A DNA stretch of 13,377 nucleotides from the NCBI GenBank assembly GCA_038858525.1, contig JAWCFL010000018.1, positions 24,700 through 38,076 on the forward strand. The letters are read 5' to 3'. Numbering within the stretch: the first letter of the stretch is position 1; each line of letters starts with the position of its first letter. Below, piece by piece: positions 1,988 to 12,016 of the stretch. Under the pieces are notes generated by a model. The model searched no databases. It saw only the letters and a list, made by a program, of their open reading frames with translations, and was not told the origin of the DNA. Origin of the DNA: Candidatus Jordarchaeales archaeon. GTDB lineage: Archaea > Asgardarchaeota > Jordiarchaeia > Jordiarchaeales > Freyrarchaeaceae. Both the position numbers and the translations under genes were made by a program.

Positions 1988-3244
1988 TTAGAAGGGTTTT
2001 TGTATTGTTGCGTCGGGGAAAACGGCTACCCTAGGTTTTCCTTCATGTGTGTTCTTCAGCTCCTCAAGGGTCTCCTCCCACGTCTTCAGCTTGACAGTCT
2101 TTTCTGGTGGAGCCATTTCAAGCCAGTACTGTTTCTCAGGGTAATTGGACAGAATTATTATTTTTCCTGCCCTGTCAAGTATTCTCGTCGGTGGAAGCCA
2201 CAAGTTTCCTCCAACTCTCTTGACGCCCCACCTTCCGTGAACATAGTGCGAAATCTGCCCGGTGGGCGTGTTGCACACTATCACGAGGGTTCCCCCCTCC
2301 TTCATCAAGACGGCGGGCCACGCTGCTATTGTCGCCTCACTAGCCTTAGAGTAGGCGTTCGAAACAACTATGTCTGGGCTCTGGACGAGCTGCGCCCTGT
2401 AATGCGTCATCGCCTCCTTAACCCCCTCTCTTTGCGCCTCTATAATGTCTCCGGCGAATACGTTCGTCGAGTTCCTTCTTAAGTCGACTAGGACGTTTAT
2501 CACCATGTCCACCCCAACCATTCTGGCTGCTTCCTCAGCGTCCCGCCTCATTATGTTCTCTTCGTTAACCCTCCCGTAAGCCAGCTGGCAACTTGGGTGC
2601 ATTTCCCTGTAGTCAGATGCAGCGGACCAGCCGCCGAGGTCGCCATGGTTAAACGAGATCGTCCTAACGCTTGATACCCCAGGCAAGATGATCTTCGCCC
2701 CTCCGCCGAAGCCGAACTGCGGGTGGGGAACTATGCAGCCGATGCACACCTTAAGGTCGCATCCCATTACCTCGGCGTTAACCTCGACGGGTGTTCCATG
2801 TCTTGTATGACCTAGGTAGTCTAAGTTGCTGTAGGGGTTATGGTTGAAGACGGGGTACCCCTCAACTATATCCTCTCCAAGCTTCTTAGCGAAGTCCTCC
2901 CTGTCAAAAGTGCCGTGAGCCCCATTGGCGCAAATAAACCTCACGTGCTCCTCCTTTATGCCTCCTCTCCTAAGTTCTTCGAGAACTAATGGTGCAACCT
3001 CATAAACCTTCGTGGGCCTAGTCATGTCGTCGAAAATTATGGCAGCCTCCTCCCTTCCCTCCGCCAGCCTACTCAGAGACTTGGTTCCGATGGGGTTTCT
3101 CAGCGCAGACAGCACCTGCTCCCTGCTCAAAGGATGCTTCCCATCGCCCATCATGCCACAAACTTGGACATCCCATCCCTCAGGAAACTCTAGTTCTAAG
3201 GTAGTGTCTCCAAACCACGGCATCTGAGGCAAACCAACTCTCAT
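1988..3244 (-). CDS. larA: LarA-family (DUF2088) nickel-pincer-dependent 2-hydroxyacid racemase/epimerase homolog
   Basis: Motifs FDDMTRP, ANGAHG, IVPHPQFGFGGGAKIILPG and SFNHG match the LarA DxTRP, GxH, PH...GGxK and NH motifs. RBS GGTGA at 3251-3255. The substrate cannot be assigned, so the symbol denotes the family only. Confidence 0.85.
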   Translation of the reverse strand: MRVGLPQMPWFGDTTLELEFPEGWDVQVCGMMGDGKHPLSREQVLSALRNPIGTKSLSRLAEGREEAAIIFDDMTRPTKVYEVAPLVLEELRRGGIKEEHVRFICANGAHGTFDREDFAKKLGEDIVEGYPVFNHNPYSNLDYLGHTRHGTPVEVNAEVMGCDLKVCIGCIVPHPQFGFGGGAKIILPGVSSVRTISFNHGDLGGWSAASDYREMHPSCQLAYGRVNEENIMRRDAEEAARMVGVDMVINVLVDLRRNSTNVFAGDIIEAQREGVKEAMTHYRAQLVQSPDIVVSNAYSKASEATIAAWPAVLMKEGGTLVIVCNTPTGQISHYVHGRWGVKRVGGNLWLPPTRILDRAGKIIILSNYPEKQYWLEMAPPEKTVKLKTWEETLEELKNTHEGKPRVAVFPDATIQKPF

Positions 3245-3464: not shown

Positions 3465-4139
3465 TTAACTGTTCGTCCCTGGTCTTCCTTTTACCTTGCA
3501 AGTTATCAGCAGACAGCTTCCCACTCTTTCAGCCTTGACGAATTCAACATTCACTGCTTGGCTCACCCTACTGAAGCCTTCCCCCTCAACGAGCGTTACA
3601 GCTTCTCTTCCGCCCACTATGACTGGTGCTATGGCGACTCTCACCTCATCCACAAGTCCCTTTTCAAGCATGCTCCAATTGAGGTTTCCTCCTCCCTCGA
3701 GAAGAAGACTTTTAACCCCCATCTCGGAAAGCCTCTCCATGAGTATTTCCAAGTTGACTTTTTCTTCTTCGCCGCAAACTATGACGTTTGCGCCTGCTTT
3801 CCTCAGCTCCTCAACTCTTTCAGCTGGAGCCCTACCGGTGACCGCTATCACGGTCGGCACCTCCCCCCTCATGAACGTGATCGCTCTAGCCGTAGGAGGC
3901 GTCCTAGCCATGCTGTCAACGATAACCCTTAGCGGGCTTCTCCCAACCTTAGACGTCAACTTTGGGTCATCCACGATTACAGTGTTGACCCCCACCATTA
4001 TCGCGTCAACCTCGCTTCTCAACCTGTGAACCCTCATCCAGTCCTCCTCATCGGAGAACTCGGAGTCACCTGAAACCGTAGCTATCTTCCCGTCCAAGCT
4101 CATGGCAGCGTTAAGTATAACGTAAGGCCTATTTCTCAT
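3465..4139 (-). CDS. arfC: 2,5-diamino-6-(ribosylamino)-4(3H)-pyrimidinone 5'-phosphate reductase (RibD C-terminal domain only; archaeal ArfC/Rib7 type)
   Basis: AAMSLDGKIAT, RVHRLRSEVDAIMVGVNTVIVDDPKLT and LLLEGGGNLNWSMLEKGLVDE motifs. No N-terminal Zn-deaminase domain. Start overlaps the upstream stop by 11 nt. Confidence 0.92.
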   Translation of the reverse strand: MRNRPYVILNAAMSLDGKIATVSGDSEFSDEEDWMRVHRLRSEVDAIMVGVNTVIVDDPKLTSKVGRSPLRVIVDSMARTPPTARAITFMRGEVPTVIAVTGRAPAERVEELRKAGANVIVCGEEEKVNLEILMERLSEMGVKSLLLEGGGNLNWSMLEKGLVDEVRVAIAPVIVGGREAVTLVEGEGFSRVSQAVNVEFVKAERVGSCLLITCKVKGRPGTNS

Positions 4140-5268
4140 GTACCTTCACCCCATCAACGTAGACGCAAACCACGTTCTCCGACTTAACCCTGTGCACCAG
4201 CGTCTGGTAGGGGTGGTGAACTGGCTTAACGTTGGGAGCATCGAGATCTATGATTACGAGGTCAGCGTCCCTTCCCCTCTCAATCCAGCCCGAGTTCAGA
4301 CTCAGAACCTCAGCCGGGTTGACGGTCACCATTTTAAATATGCTCTTCGCGTCCAGCGCCCCGACGCCGGCTCTAGCCCTGACAGCTTTCCCAAGAAAAT
4401 CCATCTCCCTGAAAAGGTCAGGGGAGTTTATCATAACGTTGTCCGTTCCAAGGCACACCTTGACGCCAGCCTCAACCATTCTCTCAACCGGAGGTACCCC
4501 GACGCCCAAGTAAGCGTTAGCTCTCGGGCAGCATGCAACCCCCCTCCCTGAAACTAGAGACAGCTCCTCATCGCTTGCATGCGTCAAATGGACCAGGAGG
4601 TCGGCGTCAAGCATGTTTATGGCCCTCACCACATCGGATACGCCATGCTCCCTAATCGACCTCTCCCTCTCCTCCCTAGTCTCGGAGGCGTGAACCGATA
4701 TTATGGCGCTCCTCATCCTGCACTCTTCACGTATCATCCTCAGCTCCTCGTCACTGTAACTAGTTGTTGATGGTAGCCCAACTCCGTCGCACACGCGCAG
4801 CAAGTCAGCTATGTTCGCATGGTCTCTCCCTAGGATGAGACACTTGATTACGACGTCCTCCAGTGCCCTCCTCAGGATCAGCGCCCCCCAAACTCCTCCC
4901 TCCCTGAAGTCGGCGAATGTCGTCGTGCCCGAGGACAGCATTTCCATAGCCGCCCACCTTATCCCATCCTTAACGTCTCTTTCCGAAGCTGCATCCAGCA
5001 ATCTGTGCTTAAGCCCGTGAGGAGGCGCCACCAGCTCCTCTATGGTGAAGTTGAACCCAACCTCCTTGAAGAAAGAGTCCCCCACATGAGTGTGCGCGTT
5101 TATCATTCCTGGCATCACAAGGCAGGAAGCATACTCTTCATCCACTCTTCCAATGGGATTATGGGAAACCCTCTTTATGAGCCCGCTGCTCGAGAACGAG
5201 ATGTAAATATTTTCCTCAAAGGCCAGCTCTCTCCCTATGAGCCCATACTCGCAATATATCGTCCTCAC
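4129..5268 (-). CDS. Metal-dependent amidohydrolase, deaminase-like subgroup (COG0402-like), inside the riboflavin operon
   Basis: PGMINAHTHVGDS (HxH), SVHASET (HxxE), VHLTHA and GTDN metal/catalytic motifs of the amidohydrolase TIM barrel. The GTG start overlaps the gch3 stop (GTGA). Confidence 0.88.
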   Translation of the reverse strand: MRTIYCEYGLIGRELAFEENIYISFSSSGLIKRVSHNPIGRVDEEYASCLVMPGMINAHTHVGDSFFKEVGFNFTIEELVAPPHGLKHRLLDAASERDVKDGIRWAAMEMLSSGTTTFADFREGGVWGALILRRALEDVVIKCLILGRDHANIADLLRVCDGVGLPSTTSYSDEELRMIREECRMRSAIISVHASETREERERSIREHGVSDVVRAINMLDADLLVHLTHASDEELSLVSGRGVACCPRANAYLGVGVPPVERMVEAGVKVCLGTDNVMINSPDLFREMDFLGKAVRARAGVGALDAKSIFKMVTVNPAEVLSLNSGWIERGRDADLVIIDLDAPNVKPVHHPYQTLVHRVKSENVVCVYVDGVKVHEK

Positions 5269-6032
5269 TCAGGCGGTCCTCCTAAGAATAGTACTGGTTC
5301 CCTCACCACCCCCCTCCTTATCTTTGAAAGGGCTTTATTAGCCTTTGAAAGCGCCTCGCTCGCGTTTCTTCCGAAGCCAACCCCCGCCTTAAGCTTTAAC
5401 CCTACGCTCGTCTCAAGCTTATCGAGGATCTCTTCGAAGTCATACTCCGTTAGCCCGTTGCATACCGATATAAAATTATCCCCACCGTTGAAGAACGTAA
5501 GCGCTCCCTTGCTCATCGAGAGCTTCATCAAAAGAGTAGACAGGTCTGATATAATGTACATCGCCTTGTATGCGTCCTCCCTATCCGTCACATTACTTGT
5601 AAAGTCGTCCACGTCTATGTGAGCTATCTGGACGTAGCTCTCCTTTGCGCCATTGTCGCTGTACGCCAGAACAGCTCTCCTCTCAGAGGACTGAGCGCTG
5701 CCTTTACTTTGAAGTACACGTGTGGCGGCTCGCTGAGCCTCATAAGCGGTCTCTCCTAAGCCTACACCCATGCTCACAGTGACAGGGTACCTTCTGGCTA
5801 TGCTCCTGAGGATCACCTCGTGCTCCCTGAGGTCGACGCCGTTCGATACTGCCAGCATGTTGTCGAAGCGCGTGAAAAAAAGTAGTCCCCCCCTCACCGA
5901 GAACATCCTCTGAAGGTCGGCGTATAGCTCGGACTGAAGCACTTGAATATCGGCTTCTCTGTCTTCCCCGAGCTCCTCAGTCCAAGGACCATAATTGTCC
6001 AGTTGAACCAGCGTTATCTTTATCAACGTCAC
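5265..6032 (-). CDS. gch3: GTP cyclohydrolase III (IIa)
   Basis: VQLDNYGPWT, RFDNMLAV, QIAHIDVDDFT, GGDNF and LKAGVG motifs of archaeal GCH III (ArfA). Starts 7 nt after the ribH stop. Confidence 0.92.
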   Translation of the reverse strand: MTLIKITLVQLDNYGPWTEELGEDREADIQVLQSELYADLQRMFSVRGGLLFFTRFDNMLAVSNGVDLREHEVILRSIARRYPVTVSMGVGLGETAYEAQRAATRVLQSKGSAQSSERRAVLAYSDNGAKESYVQIAHIDVDDFTSNVTDREDAYKAMYIISDLSTLLMKLSMSKGALTFFNGGDNFISVCNGLTEYDFEEILDKLETSVGLKLKAGVGFGRNASEALSKANKALSKIRRGVVREPVLFLGGPPE

Positions 6033-6039
6033 CCTCTCC

Positions 6040-6471
6040 TTACTCTGAAGCCTCCCTCAAACGTCTAACCATTTTTATAGCAGCCTCAACGGCCCGCCTC
6101 GGGAACTCGTCAATCCTCTCCATAGCTTCCATCCTAGTCATCCCGGGACCAGAAACACCGAGGGATACGGGCTTACCGTACTCAACAGCCAAGTCGACCA
6201 TTTTCCTCGCCGCGTGCTGCGCCACAACTTGGTCGTGGTCTGTGTCCCCCTTCATGACCGCTCCTATTGTGACTACAGCATCGACGTCGTCTCTCTCAAG
6301 GAGCTTCTTGACGGCTAATGGCATGTCGAACGCGCCGGGGACCCTCACCACCTTCACCACTTTTGCCCCGAGAAACTCAGCGTGGTCCAATGCCCTCTGA
6401 AGCATTAGGTAAGTTATGTCATAGTTGAACTCTGAAACCACCAAACCAAGCCTCACTTCATCGTCAGCCAT
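6040..6471 (-). CDS. ribH: 6,7-dimethyl-8-ribityllumazine synthase
   Basis: [38 protein letters not shown] and PVSLGV motifs. The start is placed at the ATG at 6471 because GGGTGA lies 5 nt upstream; the ORF track starts at a GTG at 6480. Confidence 0.95.
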
Positions 6472-6515
6472 CACAATCACCCTTCAGCTGACTAAACCAC
6501 CACCCTAAACTTCTA

Positions 6516-7683
<1,168 letters not shown>

Positions 7684-7715
7684 TTTAACACCGCGTCTAC
7701 AGAAAAACACATCCA

Positions 7716-7725
7716 TAATATATTT
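7716..7725 (-). promoter_or_regulatory. Probable TATA box of the riboflavin operon
   Basis: The minus-strand AAATATATTA lies about 33 nt upstream of the ribB ATG. Confidence 0.5.
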
Positions 7726-7730
7726 GTTGC

Positions 7731-7746
7731 TACTCAAAAATGAGTA
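7731..7746. promoter_or_regulatory. Perfect palindrome TACTCA-AAAA-TGAGTA, putative transcription-factor operator of the rib operon
   Basis: Read directly from the sequence; it sits 5 nt upstream of the putative TATA box. Confidence 0.65.
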
Positions 7747-7800: not shown

Positions 7801-9279
7801 TCACCCAGTCCGCGTACAGAAAACGGGTGGCATAGCTGGGTAGGCTACGCTGGCGCTTCTCCCAACGTAGCTGTACGCTTTGCTCAGCGCTTCGCTCAGA
7901 CTTCTAGCCCACTCGAACCCCATTCTCTCGGGAACCTTGGGGTTTGAAGGGGCGACATTTATAACAGTCAGAGCCCGCTCTAAGGCTGGCCTTATGGCGT
8001 ACCAGACGAAGAAGGGGTGAGCTCCGTGATAAGCGTAGCCGTACCTGTACTGCTTGACGTATCTTTCATTCTTGGCAAACTTTCTCTCGTATTTCTCGCG
8101 TAGCTCCCATGGGTCACGCGTCTCCTCTAAAGTCTTATAGAATTCTACATATGAGGGGTGATGCTTCTCGTGAAAGACCTCGTCCATAGGGTTGCAGAAT
8201 ATTAGGACGCCGTTTTTCTTGAGGATGGGCTCCCCGACGCTCAGGAAGCCGTAAGCGTACCCCAAAGCTAGGTTAGCTGTGAGGACGGGATTTTGTGTGG
8301 AGAAGGACGCGTAGGGGCTCATATTTGGGACGCCGATCACCACCACATCGAACTGCCTGTCTACCTTCAGTTCGAGCTGCCTCCTAAGGCTTTTCAATGT
8401 TTCCACGTGCACGTCGTTGACGCTTCCAGCCCCCACATAGGCCATCCTGTAAGACGCCCTAATCCTACTACGAATCACGTCTCTCATTTTTCTCGGGAAA
8501 ATGGAGAACGCTTTTAGTGTTAGGGGTACCCGTAAGCCTTTCTTGTTAGCCAGCGAGAGGCTCGGTTGAAGCTCGTTCGTCACCACAGTTTCGACTTGGA
8601 AAACTCTCACGTTTTTCTCTATAACCTCACCCATCCTCCAAAGTATCCTGTGCATCTTTGAACTCTCAGGATCCATTATGTTCCACCCAAAAACATCGGG
8701 GTTATGGTGGCAGCTTATAGATTCGTATGACCCAAGCCCAACAGCGACGGATTTCCATCCTCCGTTCATCGGAGTAAATGTAACGTTTACGTAGACCAGA
8801 ATGTCGCTCTCAACGATCTCCCTATTCACCGTCACCGGCATGCCGTCAACTGAGCCCAACTCGATCAAGTTTTCTTCATCCTCGGCGTCGTGGCAGACGG
8901 CGCGTCCAGCATGCTCCCCCACTACTGCCGCCAGCTCCCTCCTCGACCATTTTCTATGCGTCCCGTTGGCACATAGAAGCTTGACGCCAACCCCCGCCTC
9001 CTCAGCCATACTTAGAACTTCACCAACAATAATTCTCCTCGGATCCTCTGCGGGAAGGGGTATAGGGAGCACTGGGTCGTCAAAGGCCACAACAATCCTC
9101 CTACACTCCCTTAACGCCTCGCTAAGCGGCTGCTCGCTCAGAGGGTTCTCCAAAGCTTCACGAACCACTGTCCTGGGATCCTTTAGAGGCGGTAAGGGGG
9201 GAGGAGCAGTCAGCACCACGGTTCCTTCCGGGAAATCATCGGTAAGTATGTTATCGCCGTGAATTACTGGAAGCTTCAC
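7801..9279 (-). CDS. Divergent LarA/DUF2088-domain protein (long subtype)
   Basis: VVAFDD, CANGTHR, NGGWKS, CHHN, VFQVETV and AYHGAHPFFVWY motifs. GTG start with GGAGG RBS at the hbd stop; 11-nt gap to hbd. Confidence 0.75.
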   Translation of the reverse strand: MKLPVIHGDNILTDDFPEGTVVLTAPPPLPPLKDPRTVVREALENPLSEQPLSEALRECRRIVVAFDDPVLPIPLPAEDPRRIIVGEVLSMAEEAGVGVKLLCANGTHRKWSRRELAAVVGEHAGRAVCHDAEDEENLIELGSVDGMPVTVNREIVESDILVYVNVTFTPMNGGWKSVAVGLGSYESISCHHNPDVFGWNIMDPESSKMHRILWRMGEVIEKNVRVFQVETVVTNELQPSLSLANKKGLRVPLTLKAFSIFPRKMRDVIRSRIRASYRMAYVGAGSVNDVHVETLKSLRRQLELKVDRQFDVVVIGVPNMSPYASFSTQNPVLTANLALGYAYGFLSVGEPILKKNGVLIFCNPMDEVFHEKHHPSYVEFYKTLEETRDPWELREKYERKFAKNERYVKQYRYGYAYHGAHPFFVWYAIRPALERALTVINVAPSNPKVPERMGFEWARSLSEALSKAYSYVGRSASVAYPAMPPVFCTRTG

Positions 9280-9290
9280 TCACACCCCTC

Positions 9291-10466
9291 CTAGTACTTG
9301 TGGAACCCTCTTCCTGCGTTCTTACCTATCCATCCGCGCTTAACATACTCTTCAAGTAGGGGGCATGGCTTGTAAAGCTCTAACCCATACTTGCCGTACA
9401 TTTCATTTAGTAGGGATGCGAGGACGTCTAGTCCTATGGCGTCTGCGAGCTCGCATAATCCTACAGGTGACATCATGCCAAGCTTTGCAACTTTATCTAT
9501 AGTTTCCGGGTCAGCTACTTCGTCCTCTATTATCCAGAACGCCTCGTTTGCTGCTGCCGCCACCACCCTCATAACGTTGTATGTTTCAGAAGGCTTCCCG
9601 CCTATCTGTGGAGCCCCCCCACTCCAATCGTAGAAACCTTTCCCCGTTTTCTTTCCCAACTTTCCCTTCCCAACCATTTCCTCAAGTAGCCCTACGGGAA
9701 GTAGGAACCTGTCCCCATACGCTTCACGGAAATTCCTGCCGACAGCCGCCACAATGTCCACTCCTATAATGTCCACTGCCTCAGCGAAACCTATAGGGAA
9801 ACCCATGGCCTTGAGTGACGCGTCAAGCTCCTCCGGCGTCACCTCTCCTCTACTTATAGCCCACAATCCTTCAGCTCCAGCAGCCATGAGAATCCTGTTA
9901 AGGACGAAGCCCCTCATGTCCTTCTTCACGACGACCGGCGTCTTACCCAATTTCTCCGCTACACGCGCTATAACTCTCAACGTTTCTTCGCTGGTCTCTC
10001 TGCCTTTGACGACTTCCACTAGAGGCATTAAAATAGGTGGGTTCGAAAAGTGCATACCGCCAACCCTCCCAGCCCCCCTTAGCCCCTCAGCTATCTCCGT
10101 GACGCTTAAGCTAGAGGTGTTGGTTGCGAGCACCACGCTCTCCGGTAGCCCGTCAAGCATACTGAAAAGCATCCTCTTCAACTCCAAGTTCTCGCTCACC
10201 GCCTCAAAAACGAAGTCCACATCTTTAACATCCTCCAGCCTAGTCGTTAACGAGACACGCTCCCAAACGGACTCGAAGCTTTCTCTAGTCATGGACATCC
10301 GCCGAAGCATCTCCACATTATCCCTATACTTGTCTTTCAGCCTGTCAAGAGCCTTCTCTGATACATCTTCCACAACAACATCGCACCCGGAAAGAGCAAA
10401 TAGAAAAGAAACATCGGACCCCATGGTCCCGGCACCAATCACCGCTACACGACCAATTTCACTCAC
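9291..10466 (-). CDS. 3-hydroxyacyl-CoA dehydrogenase (NAD-binding domain plus duplicated C-terminal domain)
   Basis: GAGTMG Rossmann motif, EAVSENLELK, TNTSSLS, GMHFSNP (catalytic His), GFVLNR, and two C-terminal repeats (GFPIGFAEAVDIIGVD...GKLGKKTGKGFY and SPVGLCELADAIGLD...GWIGKNAGRGFH). GTG start with GGAGG RBS. Confidence 0.92.
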   Translation of the reverse strand: MSEIGRVAVIGAGTMGSDVSFLFALSGCDVVVEDVSEKALDRLKDKYRDNVEMLRRMSMTRESFESVWERVSLTTRLEDVKDVDFVFEAVSENLELKRMLFSMLDGLPESVVLATNTSSLSVTEIAEGLRGAGRVGGMHFSNPPILMPLVEVVKGRETSEETLRVIARVAEKLGKTPVVVKKDMRGFVLNRILMAAGAEGLWAISRGEVTPEELDASLKAMGFPIGFAEAVDIIGVDIVAAVGRNFREAYGDRFLLPVGLLEEMVGKGKLGKKTGKGFYDWSGGAPQIGGKPSETYNVMRVVAAAANEAFWIIEDEVADPETIDKVAKLGMMSPVGLCELADAIGLDVLASLLNEMYGKYGLELYKPCPLLEEYVKRGWIGKNAGRGFHKY

Positions 10467-10610: not shown

Positions 10611-11135
10611 TTACCACTCGTCTAGTTTCGCTATGGCAGGGTTAGCCGGTCTTCTGCTTGTGGCTAGCGCAGGCTGGGCGTATTCCACCCCAATGTTTTC
10701 TCTTTTATTTTCCTCTTTTACCTCTTCGTTTTTCTCCTCGGTTTTCTTCTGCTCTGGTTTGTATATTTTGACGAATGGACCAGGCGTTACTACTATGTAT
10801 TCTCCTCCGAGCTGCGCTATGTCTCCATCCAGCTGGCGGCATATTCCTCTCAGCTGGTCAACAGCCCTTTTCAGTTCGTTTCTTGTCTTATCTCTCTGGA
10901 GAATAGGCCTTATGTGGAGTATAATTATGTTTCCTGCTCTGAGCTCCGCTACCACCTTCTGGATGTCTGACAGCATTATGAGCGGTATCGACTTGATGTA
11001 TATCTCCTCCGGGGCGGAGATGTTGAACTCTTCGCTCTCCTCCGGATAGCTGAAGTAGCGTCGGGGGTCTGGCACTATGCCCTGAGCGCTTCCATGCCCT
11101 CCACCGTTTCTCTTAAAAAGTCTGGCTATAACCAT
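10611..11135 (-). CDS. sepF: Archaeal SepF-like cell-division protein (COG2450/DUF552) with charged C-terminal tail
   Basis: Core IYIKSIPL...DIQKVVAELRAGNIIILHIRP...ELKRAVDQLRGICRQLDGDIAQLGGEYIVVTP matches the archaeal SepF pattern. GGAGGT RBS upstream of the ATG. Confidence 0.75.
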   Translation of the reverse strand: MVIARLFKRNGGGHGSAQGIVPDPRRYFSYPEESEEFNISAPEEIYIKSIPLIMLSDIQKVVAELRAGNIIILHIRPILQRDKTRNELKRAVDQLRGICRQLDGDIAQLGGEYIVVTPGPFVKIYKPEQKKTEEKNEEVKEENKRENIGVEYAQPALATSRRPANPAIAKLDEW

Positions 11136-11227: not shown

Positions 11228-12016
11228 CTACTCGCTTTTGAGGAGGTCTATTACCACCTGGTGTACTCCTCTTAGGATCTCGTGCATGTGTATGAGTGTT
11301 GCCTCCGCTGAAAGCTTGGCAAGCCTGTCAGGGATGTTCATGGCTTTTTCCATGAGTCTTTTAATTTCCTTCTGGAGGAAATCTTCCGCCCGAAGTATAG
11401 CGTCCGTCTTCCCTCTCTCCCTCCGCCTGTAAGCCTCCATAGCTGACTCGAAGAGCTCCTTTACCATCCTCATCACTCTAACCACCTCTATTTTCACCCC
11501 GCCCGAGAGTCCCCTTCTAGCTACTGCATGGGCGGTGTGAGCTAGGTAGTCAGCGACCCTTTCTAGAAGGGAAACGTAACCCGCTCTCTCGAATAGTGCT
11601 TTAGTCTTCTTGGGGCTCTGGGAAATCTGCCTCCTGAAGCGTTGTGCATACCTGTGAACGTTTTCATGGGCGTCTTCTATCGCTTCAGCCATGACTGCGT
11701 CTTCGTTCTCAACAGCCTCCAACACTTTGTCGAAGAGTCCCCTCGTAGCTTCATAAATAAGCTTAAAGATGTCCTCGGGGGTTGAGTCCATCACGTCTTG
11801 AAGCACTATGTTCCTTGGTGTGCAGAAAGAGATCTCGAAGCCCGGTAGCCTGCGAAGCACCTCATTGATCCTTTCAAGGTCGGTGCTGGTGAGTGGCTCC
11901 TCCATCTCTATCCTTATCGATCTTACGCCTTCAACGTAGAGTAGCTCTATGGAGTGCAGTGCTCGTTCAAACTCTTCCCTGCTTCTAACAGTCACCCTTC
12001 TCTCTTCATAGTCCAA
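11228..12016 (-). CDS. PhoU-domain protein, archaeal phosphate-uptake-regulator-like, apparently without the N-terminal AbrB domain
   Basis: LLYVEGVRSIRI middle-domain pattern, a helical C-terminal region and LLERVADYLAHTA resembling the PhoU ERxxD motif. TTG start with GGGGAG upstream. Confidence 0.6.
   Translation of the reverse strand: MDYEERRVTVRSREEFERALHSIELLYVEGVRSIRIEMEEPLTSTDLERINEVLRRLPGFEISFCTPRNIVLQDVMDSTPEDIFKLIYEATRGLFDKVLEAVENEDAVMAEAIEDAHENVHRYAQRFRRQISQSPKKTKALFERAGYVSLLERVADYLAHTAHAVARRGLSGGVKIEVVRVMRMVKELFESAMEAYRRRERGKTDAILRAEDFLQKEIKRLMEKAMNIPDRLAKLSAEATLIHMHEILRGVHQVVIDLLKSE

Follow-up and report, generated by a model that had tools for sequence, protein, structure and literature searches.

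The Asgard archaeon Candidatus Jordarchaeales archaeon codes, within a riboflavin biosynthesis operon, for an amidohydrolase (AH; protein P0001) that is quite likely to be the C2-deaminase of 2,5-diamino-6-ribitylamino-4(3H)-pyrimidinone 5'-phosphate, i.e., the ribityl form of the pyrimidine intermediate. The gene lies on the minus strand at positions 4129-5268 of a 13,377-nucleotide stretch (hereafter the window; GenBank assembly GCA_038858525.1, contig JAWCFL010000018.1, positions 24,700 to 38,076), begins with a GTG start codon and specifies 379 amino acids. P0001 is a metal-dependent deaminase with the full catalytic set of the COG0402-type mononuclear deaminases, and we predict that it serves as the pyrimidine deaminase of riboflavin and FO synthesis. 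An earlier note, made from the letters of the DNA alone, had proposed that it supplies the pyrimidine deaminase step; this is now supported computationally by the active site, the fold, the pairing and co-occurrence with the reductase ArfC, the retention of the gene in genomes with RibA, the cofG-cofH context and the lack of a detected cytidine-deaminase-fold enzyme in its own genome.

The Pfam domain Amidohydro_1 covers residues 50-374 of P0001 (8.8e-52), and the NCBIfam model NF005552 (PRK07213, labeled 'chlorohydrolase') matches it across model positions 11-377 of 382 with 313.5 bits, above the curated cut-off of 294. The models for DadD, MtaD and guanine deaminase return 76-145 bits against cut-offs of 375-779, and the protein likewise falls far under the cut-offs of the HutF and aminofutalosine deaminase models. 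Its closest named relatives come from metagenome-assembled genomes (MAGs) of Jordarchaeales and Freyarchaeota. Conservation was gauged on 145 aligned representatives (50%-identity clusters) recovered by an exhaustive profile-free search, and the catalytic positions were placed by alignment to TM0936, the Thermotoga 5'-methylthioadenosine/S-adenosylhomocysteine (MTA/SAH) deaminase that is the nearest sequence of solved structure. Strand 1 is followed by the HxH metal ligands, H59-T60-H61 (codons 5086-5094, minus strand), 99% conserved; the HxxE motif is H193-A-S-E196 (4681-4692, minus strand), with the metal-ligand histidine 100% and the proton-shuttle glutamate 97% conserved; the catalytic histidine after strand 6 is H227 (4588-4590, minus strand), 100% conserved; and the aspartate after strand 8 is D276 (4441-4443, minus strand), which sits in a family-specific GTDN motif whose D276 and N277 are both 100% conserved. 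All the motifs that the earlier note had read from the sequence (HxH, HxxE in the form HASE, H and D) are thus present, and as the six residues H59, H61, H193, E196, H227 and D276 are 97-100% conserved across these representatives, the motifs are not chance matches. Further positions conserved in at least 90% of the representatives are D64, K87, D120, F121, E123, R148, C247, P248, R249, N277, E288 and R360. The presence of several basic residues among them would suit a phosphorylated substrate.

An AlphaFold2 model of P0001 built on 17 homologs (predicted local distance difference test 93.8, predicted template modeling score 0.93) has the (beta/alpha)8 barrel of the family. The best Foldseek matches of this model are all COG0402-type mononuclear enzymes, namely the MTA/adenosine deaminases, AtzA/TrzN, the isocytosine deaminase Vcz, HutF and the guanine deaminases, with template modeling (TM) scores of 0.82-0.89 to many members of this assemblage. 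With TM0936 and the MTA/SAH/adenosine deaminases (PDB 1p1m, 4gbd, 4f0s), P0001 shares both the barrel and the composite beta-sandwich (Foldseek E 1e-28 to 9e-30, TM 0.85-0.87), and phmmer aligns all six of its catalytic positions to TM0936 (E 4e-28). However, it is only 22-26% identical to enzymes of this type, differs from them in substrate-loop residues and genomic context, and scores far below the cut-offs of their NCBIfam models. The guanine deaminases and the isocytosine deaminase Vcz (PDB 2uz9, 6ohb, 8is4) also have the same fold (TM 0.82-0.88) and cleave the amino group from C2 of a 2-amino-4-oxo-pyrimidine ring, which is the chemistry needed in the riboflavin pathway; these are just 16-20% identical to P0001, and act on free bases rather than on a pyrimidine bearing a ribityl-phosphate substituent. 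By contrast, the N-terminal domain of RibD and the fungal Rib2, which bring about the same deamination or its equivalent in bacteria, plants and fungi, have the cytidine deaminase fold that is unrelated to the fold of P0001. No extra domain was found in the best 150 family representatives, and a search for fused forms of at least 665 amino acids came up empty, which is weak evidence against fusions. One lysine-rich representative (P0148), for which a Methanococcales origin had been guessed, proved to be of the Lokiarchaeota/Thorarchaeota type.

A protein with this proposed role has been described before. That archaea lack the deaminase domain of RibD is stated by Rodionova et al. (2017, PMC5397151), in which 'PyrD' is the candidate archaeal pyrimidine deaminase on the grounds of clustering and co-occurrence; that paper cites Osterman, Overbeek and Rodionov (2010) for the proposal. 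HVO_2483 of Haloferax volcanii and MJ0699 of Methanocaldococcus jannaschii are named as candidates needing experimental confirmation by Pfeiffer and Dyall-Smith (2021, PMC8305020). The suspicion voiced in the earlier note, that similar archaeal proteins might already have been put forward, was hence well founded. Among 14 control genomes, NF005552 has matches at E ≤ 1e-50 only in M. jannaschii, H. volcanii, S. acidocaldarius and M. acetivorans and in no bacterial control. The P0001 family is very probably the same as the published 'PyrD' candidate (MJ0699, HVO_2483), an identity drawn from the NCBIfam model, these control genomes and the frequency with which the family clusters with riboflavin genes. 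The two share the proposed role and the kind of evidence, i.e., clustering with riboflavin genes and co-occurrence; P0001 differs in being an Asgard (Jordarchaeia-like) copy, and the function is a prediction for the family as a whole. Our reading of P0001 is a well-supported rediscovery of a published prediction, now in an Asgard genome.

In the window, six tightly packed minus-strand genes form an operon in the order ribB-ribC-ribH-arfA-AH-arfC. These are ribB (6976-7737; the synthase of 3,4-dihydroxy-2-butanone 4-phosphate, DHBP; TIGR00506, 219.8 bits), ribC (6516-6986; archaeal-type riboflavin synthase; TIGR01506, 227.9 bits), ribH (6040-6480; 6,7-dimethyl-8-ribityllumazine synthase; TIGR00114, 152.8 bits), arfA (5265-6032; GTP cyclohydrolase III; Pfam GCH_III 1.2e-88, NF002587 299.7 bits), the AH gene, and arfC (3465-4139), whose product is the 2,5-diamino-6-ribosylamino-4(3H)-pyrimidinone 5'-phosphate reductase in the form of a stand-alone RibD_C domain (Pfam RibD_C; TIGR01508, 235.2 bits, cut-off 186). 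Pfam and NCBIfam searches thereby type all five same-strand neighbors of the AH gene as riboflavin genes, in keeping with the description of an otherwise purely riboflavin operon in the earlier note. The two gene overlaps given there are also borne out by the coordinates: the GTG start of the AH gene (5268-5266) and the TGA stop of arfA (5267-5265) share a GTGA (5265-5268, minus strand), and the end of the AH gene (stop codon 4131-4129) overlaps the start of arfC (ATG at 4139) by 11 nucleotides (4129-4139, minus strand). A GGAGG Shine-Dalgarno-like motif, read from the sequence, lies within the 3' end of arfA at 5278-5282 (minus strand), 9 nucleotides upstream of the GTG. A scan for sigma-70 promoters and intrinsic terminators, models that are not applicable to archaea, yielded counts no higher than in shuffled sequence.

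This arrangement extends well beyond the Jordarchaeales. We searched the best 80 of 564 loci of relatives, taken as one genome per species, with the riboflavin proteins of the window itself; the 80 are drawn from genomes of Asgard archaea, Nitrososphaerota and Bathyarchaeia. The order arfA-AH-arfC occurs in 70 of them, mostly preceded by ribB-(ribC)-ribH, while five further loci have arfC directly downstream of the AH gene and two have arfA upstream. A riboflavin or FO-synthase (cofG-cofH) context is seen in 79 of the 80, the sole exception being L014, and two more distant homologs (35% identity) keep the same riboflavin neighbors. Co-localization of homologs with riboflavin genes across archaea, proposed in the earlier note as a check on its idea, is borne out by a near-obligate pairing with arfC in at least three archaeal phyla. 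The pair AH-arfC is followed by cofG-cofH in f9 and f5, two Asgard families of the sample, and in three MAGs, one from Helarchaeota, one from an unclassified archaeon (L015) and one from Bathyarchaeia; in a further Bathyarchaeia locus, L047, cofG-cofH come directly after the AH gene with no adjacent arfC. Both cofG and cofH in these loci score above their curated cut-offs. The substrate of CofH is 5-amino-6-ribitylaminouracil, i.e., the dephosphorylated product of the reaction that we propose. As the gene travels with two different consumers, the riboflavin genes and cofG-cofH, this distribution fits the production of the deaminated pyrimidine by AH together with ArfC.

The f9 loci (L120:7001-12095, L121, L122 and L123) also present a divergently oriented gene for an MptA-type GTP cyclohydrolase (TIGR00294, 227.7 bits, cut-off 220), followed by AH-arfC-cofG-cofH. 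We note this MptA-like neighbor as a lead: it is a candidate GTP cyclohydrolase for genomes with neither ArfA nor RibA.

The phyletic pattern of the family is strongly correlated with that of ArfC. Across 101 Asgard genomes the NF005552 scores are bimodal, with orthologs at 200 bits or more and other amidohydrolase relatives at about 150 or less; in two further genomes the copy is truncated or split and reaches 119-175 bits. An ortholog is present in 43 of the 101, every one of which has ArfC (43/43), and conversely in 43 of the 45 genomes with ArfC as against none of the 56 that lack it. The GTP cyclohydrolase of the 43 ortholog-bearing genomes varies: 15 have ArfA, 11 have RibA instead and 17 have neither. 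A search of the 101 Asgard genomes for bacterial-type RibD (TIGR00326, E ≤ 1e-40) gave no match, and the hoped-for pattern of RibD where the amidohydrolase is absent was thus not seen. In the Thermoproteota (101 genomes), 21 have a match at E ≤ 1e-45, and ArfC is present in all 21.

Taken with the biochemistry of the fold, these observations suggest the following scheme. ArfA would open GTP, a deformylase would convert its product to 2,5-diamino-6-ribosylamino-4(3H)-pyrimidinone 5'-phosphate, and ArfC would reduce the ribosyl chain to ribityl. P0001 would then exchange the amino group at C2 of the 2-amino-4-oxo-pyrimidine ring for oxygen with release of ammonia, giving 5-amino-6-ribitylamino-2,4(1H,3H)-pyrimidinedione 5'-phosphate; this, once dephosphorylated, would pass to RibH for riboflavin or to CofG/CofH for FO in the F420 branch. 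The placement of reduction before deamination in the archaeal pathway follows biochemical work on M. jannaschii, as cited in PMC5397151. In the active site, a hydroxide bound to a metal (presumably Zn or Fe) with H59, H61, H193 and D276 as ligands would attack C2, while E196 and H227 would shuttle protons, a chemistry that we model on those deaminases of this fold that act on guanine, isocytosine and adenosine.

An alternative with the same chemistry would follow the bacterial order, in which the ribosyl intermediate is deaminated ahead of the reduction by ArfC, or else the enzyme might accept both forms. The AH gene does precede arfC in the arfA-AH-arfC order, and the sequence gives no hint as to whether the substrate is ribosyl or ribityl; however, the M. 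jannaschii work just mentioned, as cited in PMC5397151, puts reduction first, the order of genes does not fix that of the reactions, and we regard this variant as unlikely. A more drastic departure would be a formamide hydrolase that replaces ArfB and deformylates the product of GTP cyclohydrolase III. The position of the AH gene directly after arfA is compatible with this, as is the genome's own lack of an ArfB equivalog: NF033501 finds none in the assembly, where the sole creatininase-family protein reaches 38.8 bits, the cut-off being 180. Against it, the ortholog tracks ArfC and not ArfA, with 28 of the 43 ortholog-bearing Asgard genomes lacking ArfA and 11 of these 28 having RibA; since the product of RibA is already deformylated, the persistence of AH-arfC in genomes that use RibA disfavors an ArfB-like role. 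Moreover, the AH gene also occurs beside cofG-cofH without arfA, and its nearest structures are chiefly aminohydrolases of ring-amino C-N bonds, along with triazine chlorohydrolases and the iminohydrolase HutF, with no formamidase among them. P0001 itself has no creatininase or NF033501 match. The genome does possess a creatininase-family candidate for the step, and haloarchaea likewise have a candidate, HVO_1235 being their proposed ArfB (PMC8305020). Hence, a formamide hydrolase seems to us highly improbable, and we give similarly little credence to the idea that one amidohydrolase performs both hydrolytic steps, the deformylation of the ArfA product and the later C2-deamination, in lineages without an ArfB equivalog.

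One could also suppose that P0001 is a general deaminase of nucleosides or bases, of the MTA/SAH/5'-deoxyadenosine, guanine or isocytosine type, with a substrate unconnected to its operon position. Its best solved relatives are indeed TM0936 and the MTA/adenosine deaminases of Pseudomonas and Chromobacterium, and it is the only COG0402-type enzyme of its genome, the other amidohydrolases being a dihydroorotase, an adenine deaminase and an FwdA-like protein. Yet P0001 falls far short of the DadD, MtaD and guanine deaminase cut-offs, the strong NF005552 matches among the control genomes are confined to four archaea, the family-specific invariant residues D64, K87, D120, F121, E123, R148, R249, N277 and R360 set the family apart from TM0936, and synteny across phyla combined with co-occurrence with ArfC is hard to ascribe to chance, making this reading very unlikely. 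The amidohydrolase superfamily includes phosphoesterases, which raises the further idea of another task in the pathway, either as the 5'-phosphatase of ribitylaminouracil phosphate or in damage control through hydrolysis of reactive intermediates. The archaeal phosphatase step is likewise without an assigned enzyme (PMC8305020); however, the mononuclear site with its HxxE motif and near structural neighbors that are all deaminases or dechlorinases, with no phosphatases, speak against such a task, which would also leave the deaminase still missing, and we assign it hardly any probability.

Several points nevertheless weigh against the C2-deaminase proposal. The substrate is not readable from sequence, and in the literature searched we found no biochemical or genetic test of any family member. 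Close relatives (Nitrosopumilus, Nitrososphaera) account for many of the 80 loci, and the counts therefore overstate the independent support. Some family members occur outside any riboflavin context, e.g., P0164, for which NF005552 is still the best NCBIfam match (207 bits). Of the 40 Thermoproteota genomes with ArfC, 19 are without a strong match, and nine of these 19 have an arfA-arfC-ribB operon devoid of the AH gene (loci of this kind are L093, L095, L097-L099, L101, L105, L107, L110 and L111), so the linkage is not universal. In each of the five such genomes tested there is a divergent copy, a single amidohydrolase of about 350 amino acids encoded elsewhere in the genome (e.g., L112:925-1980), with NF005552 as the best NCBIfam match; these are about 30% identical to P0001 and keep the HxH-D, PHG-K, HxxE, PRAN and GTDN motifs, while the DFRE motif is absent. 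The family may accordingly be near-universal among the holders of ArfC, as far as divergent copies from five genomes can indicate. Finally, a PF00383 domain (cytidine deaminase fold) was detected neither in P0001 nor anywhere in the assembly, but at a completeness of 92.7% this does not prove that a second deaminase is absent. As for P0164 itself (L091:4451-5590, L092:1629-2768), it is 31% identical to P0001 and adjoins formiminotransferase-cyclodeaminase (FTCD) genes in an Arf-GTPase-bearing archaeon, on contigs of 3-6 kb.

The deformylase step of this genome is tentatively covered by its creatininase-family gene, and the creatininase-family and ArfB scores are alike in the control genomes of H. 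volcanii and S. acidocaldarius. That gene lies on another contig (G000:C28:3955-4707; L004:1486-2292), between genes for a trehalose-phosphatase-like protein and a GNAT acetyltransferase. Regarding expression, contigs from run X1, a sediment metatranscriptome, cover most of the operon (window 3709-7659) at 98-99% identity, with the AH/arfC junction contained in one of them. The operon of a close strain was probably transcribed in that sample, with DNA carry-over being possible. In a hot-spring RNA run (X4) there are eight reads, all oriented as minus-strand RNA would be in a standard stranded library, whereas the RNA runs X2 and X3 yielded none and carry no weight either way. Together these data agree, if weakly, with transcription of the operon.

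The riboflavin operon is flanked on either side by homologs of the LarA family of nickel-pincer-dependent racemases/isomerases (1988-3244 and 7801-9279, both minus strand). The second of these resembles the LarAH14/15/16 family, yet attains 457 bits against a cut-off of 740; a counterpart of the first is also found downstream of arfC in the closest relative locus (L009). Directly upstream of the second LarA homolog is a gene for a 3-hydroxyacyl-CoA dehydrogenase whose C-terminal domain is duplicated (9291-10466, minus strand; two 3HCDH stretches), and upstream of these metabolic genes are those for a SepF-domain cell division protein and a PhoU-domain protein (10611-11135 and 11228-12016, both minus strand). 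At the other end of the window, two tandem open reading frames on the plus strand (3-857 and 862-1944) have weak nucleotidyltransferase-domain matches only (E about 1e-3) and no NCBIfam match.

The deaminase and the phosphatase are the steps toward riboflavin and the F420 precursor in archaea that lack a demonstrated enzyme, a gap that dates to at least 2002, and the deformylase, too, has only candidates in most archaea besides M. jannaschii. P0001 by itself adds little beyond an Asgard example. What the present analysis contributes is a sharper argument for a deaminase over a deformylase, in that the gene follows ArfC under either ArfA or RibA and travels with cofG-cofH. If the proposal is true, the archaeal enzyme would be a non-homologous replacement of the RibD/Rib2 deaminase, and thousands of annotations as 'chlorohydrolase' or 'amidohydrolase family protein' would have to be corrected.

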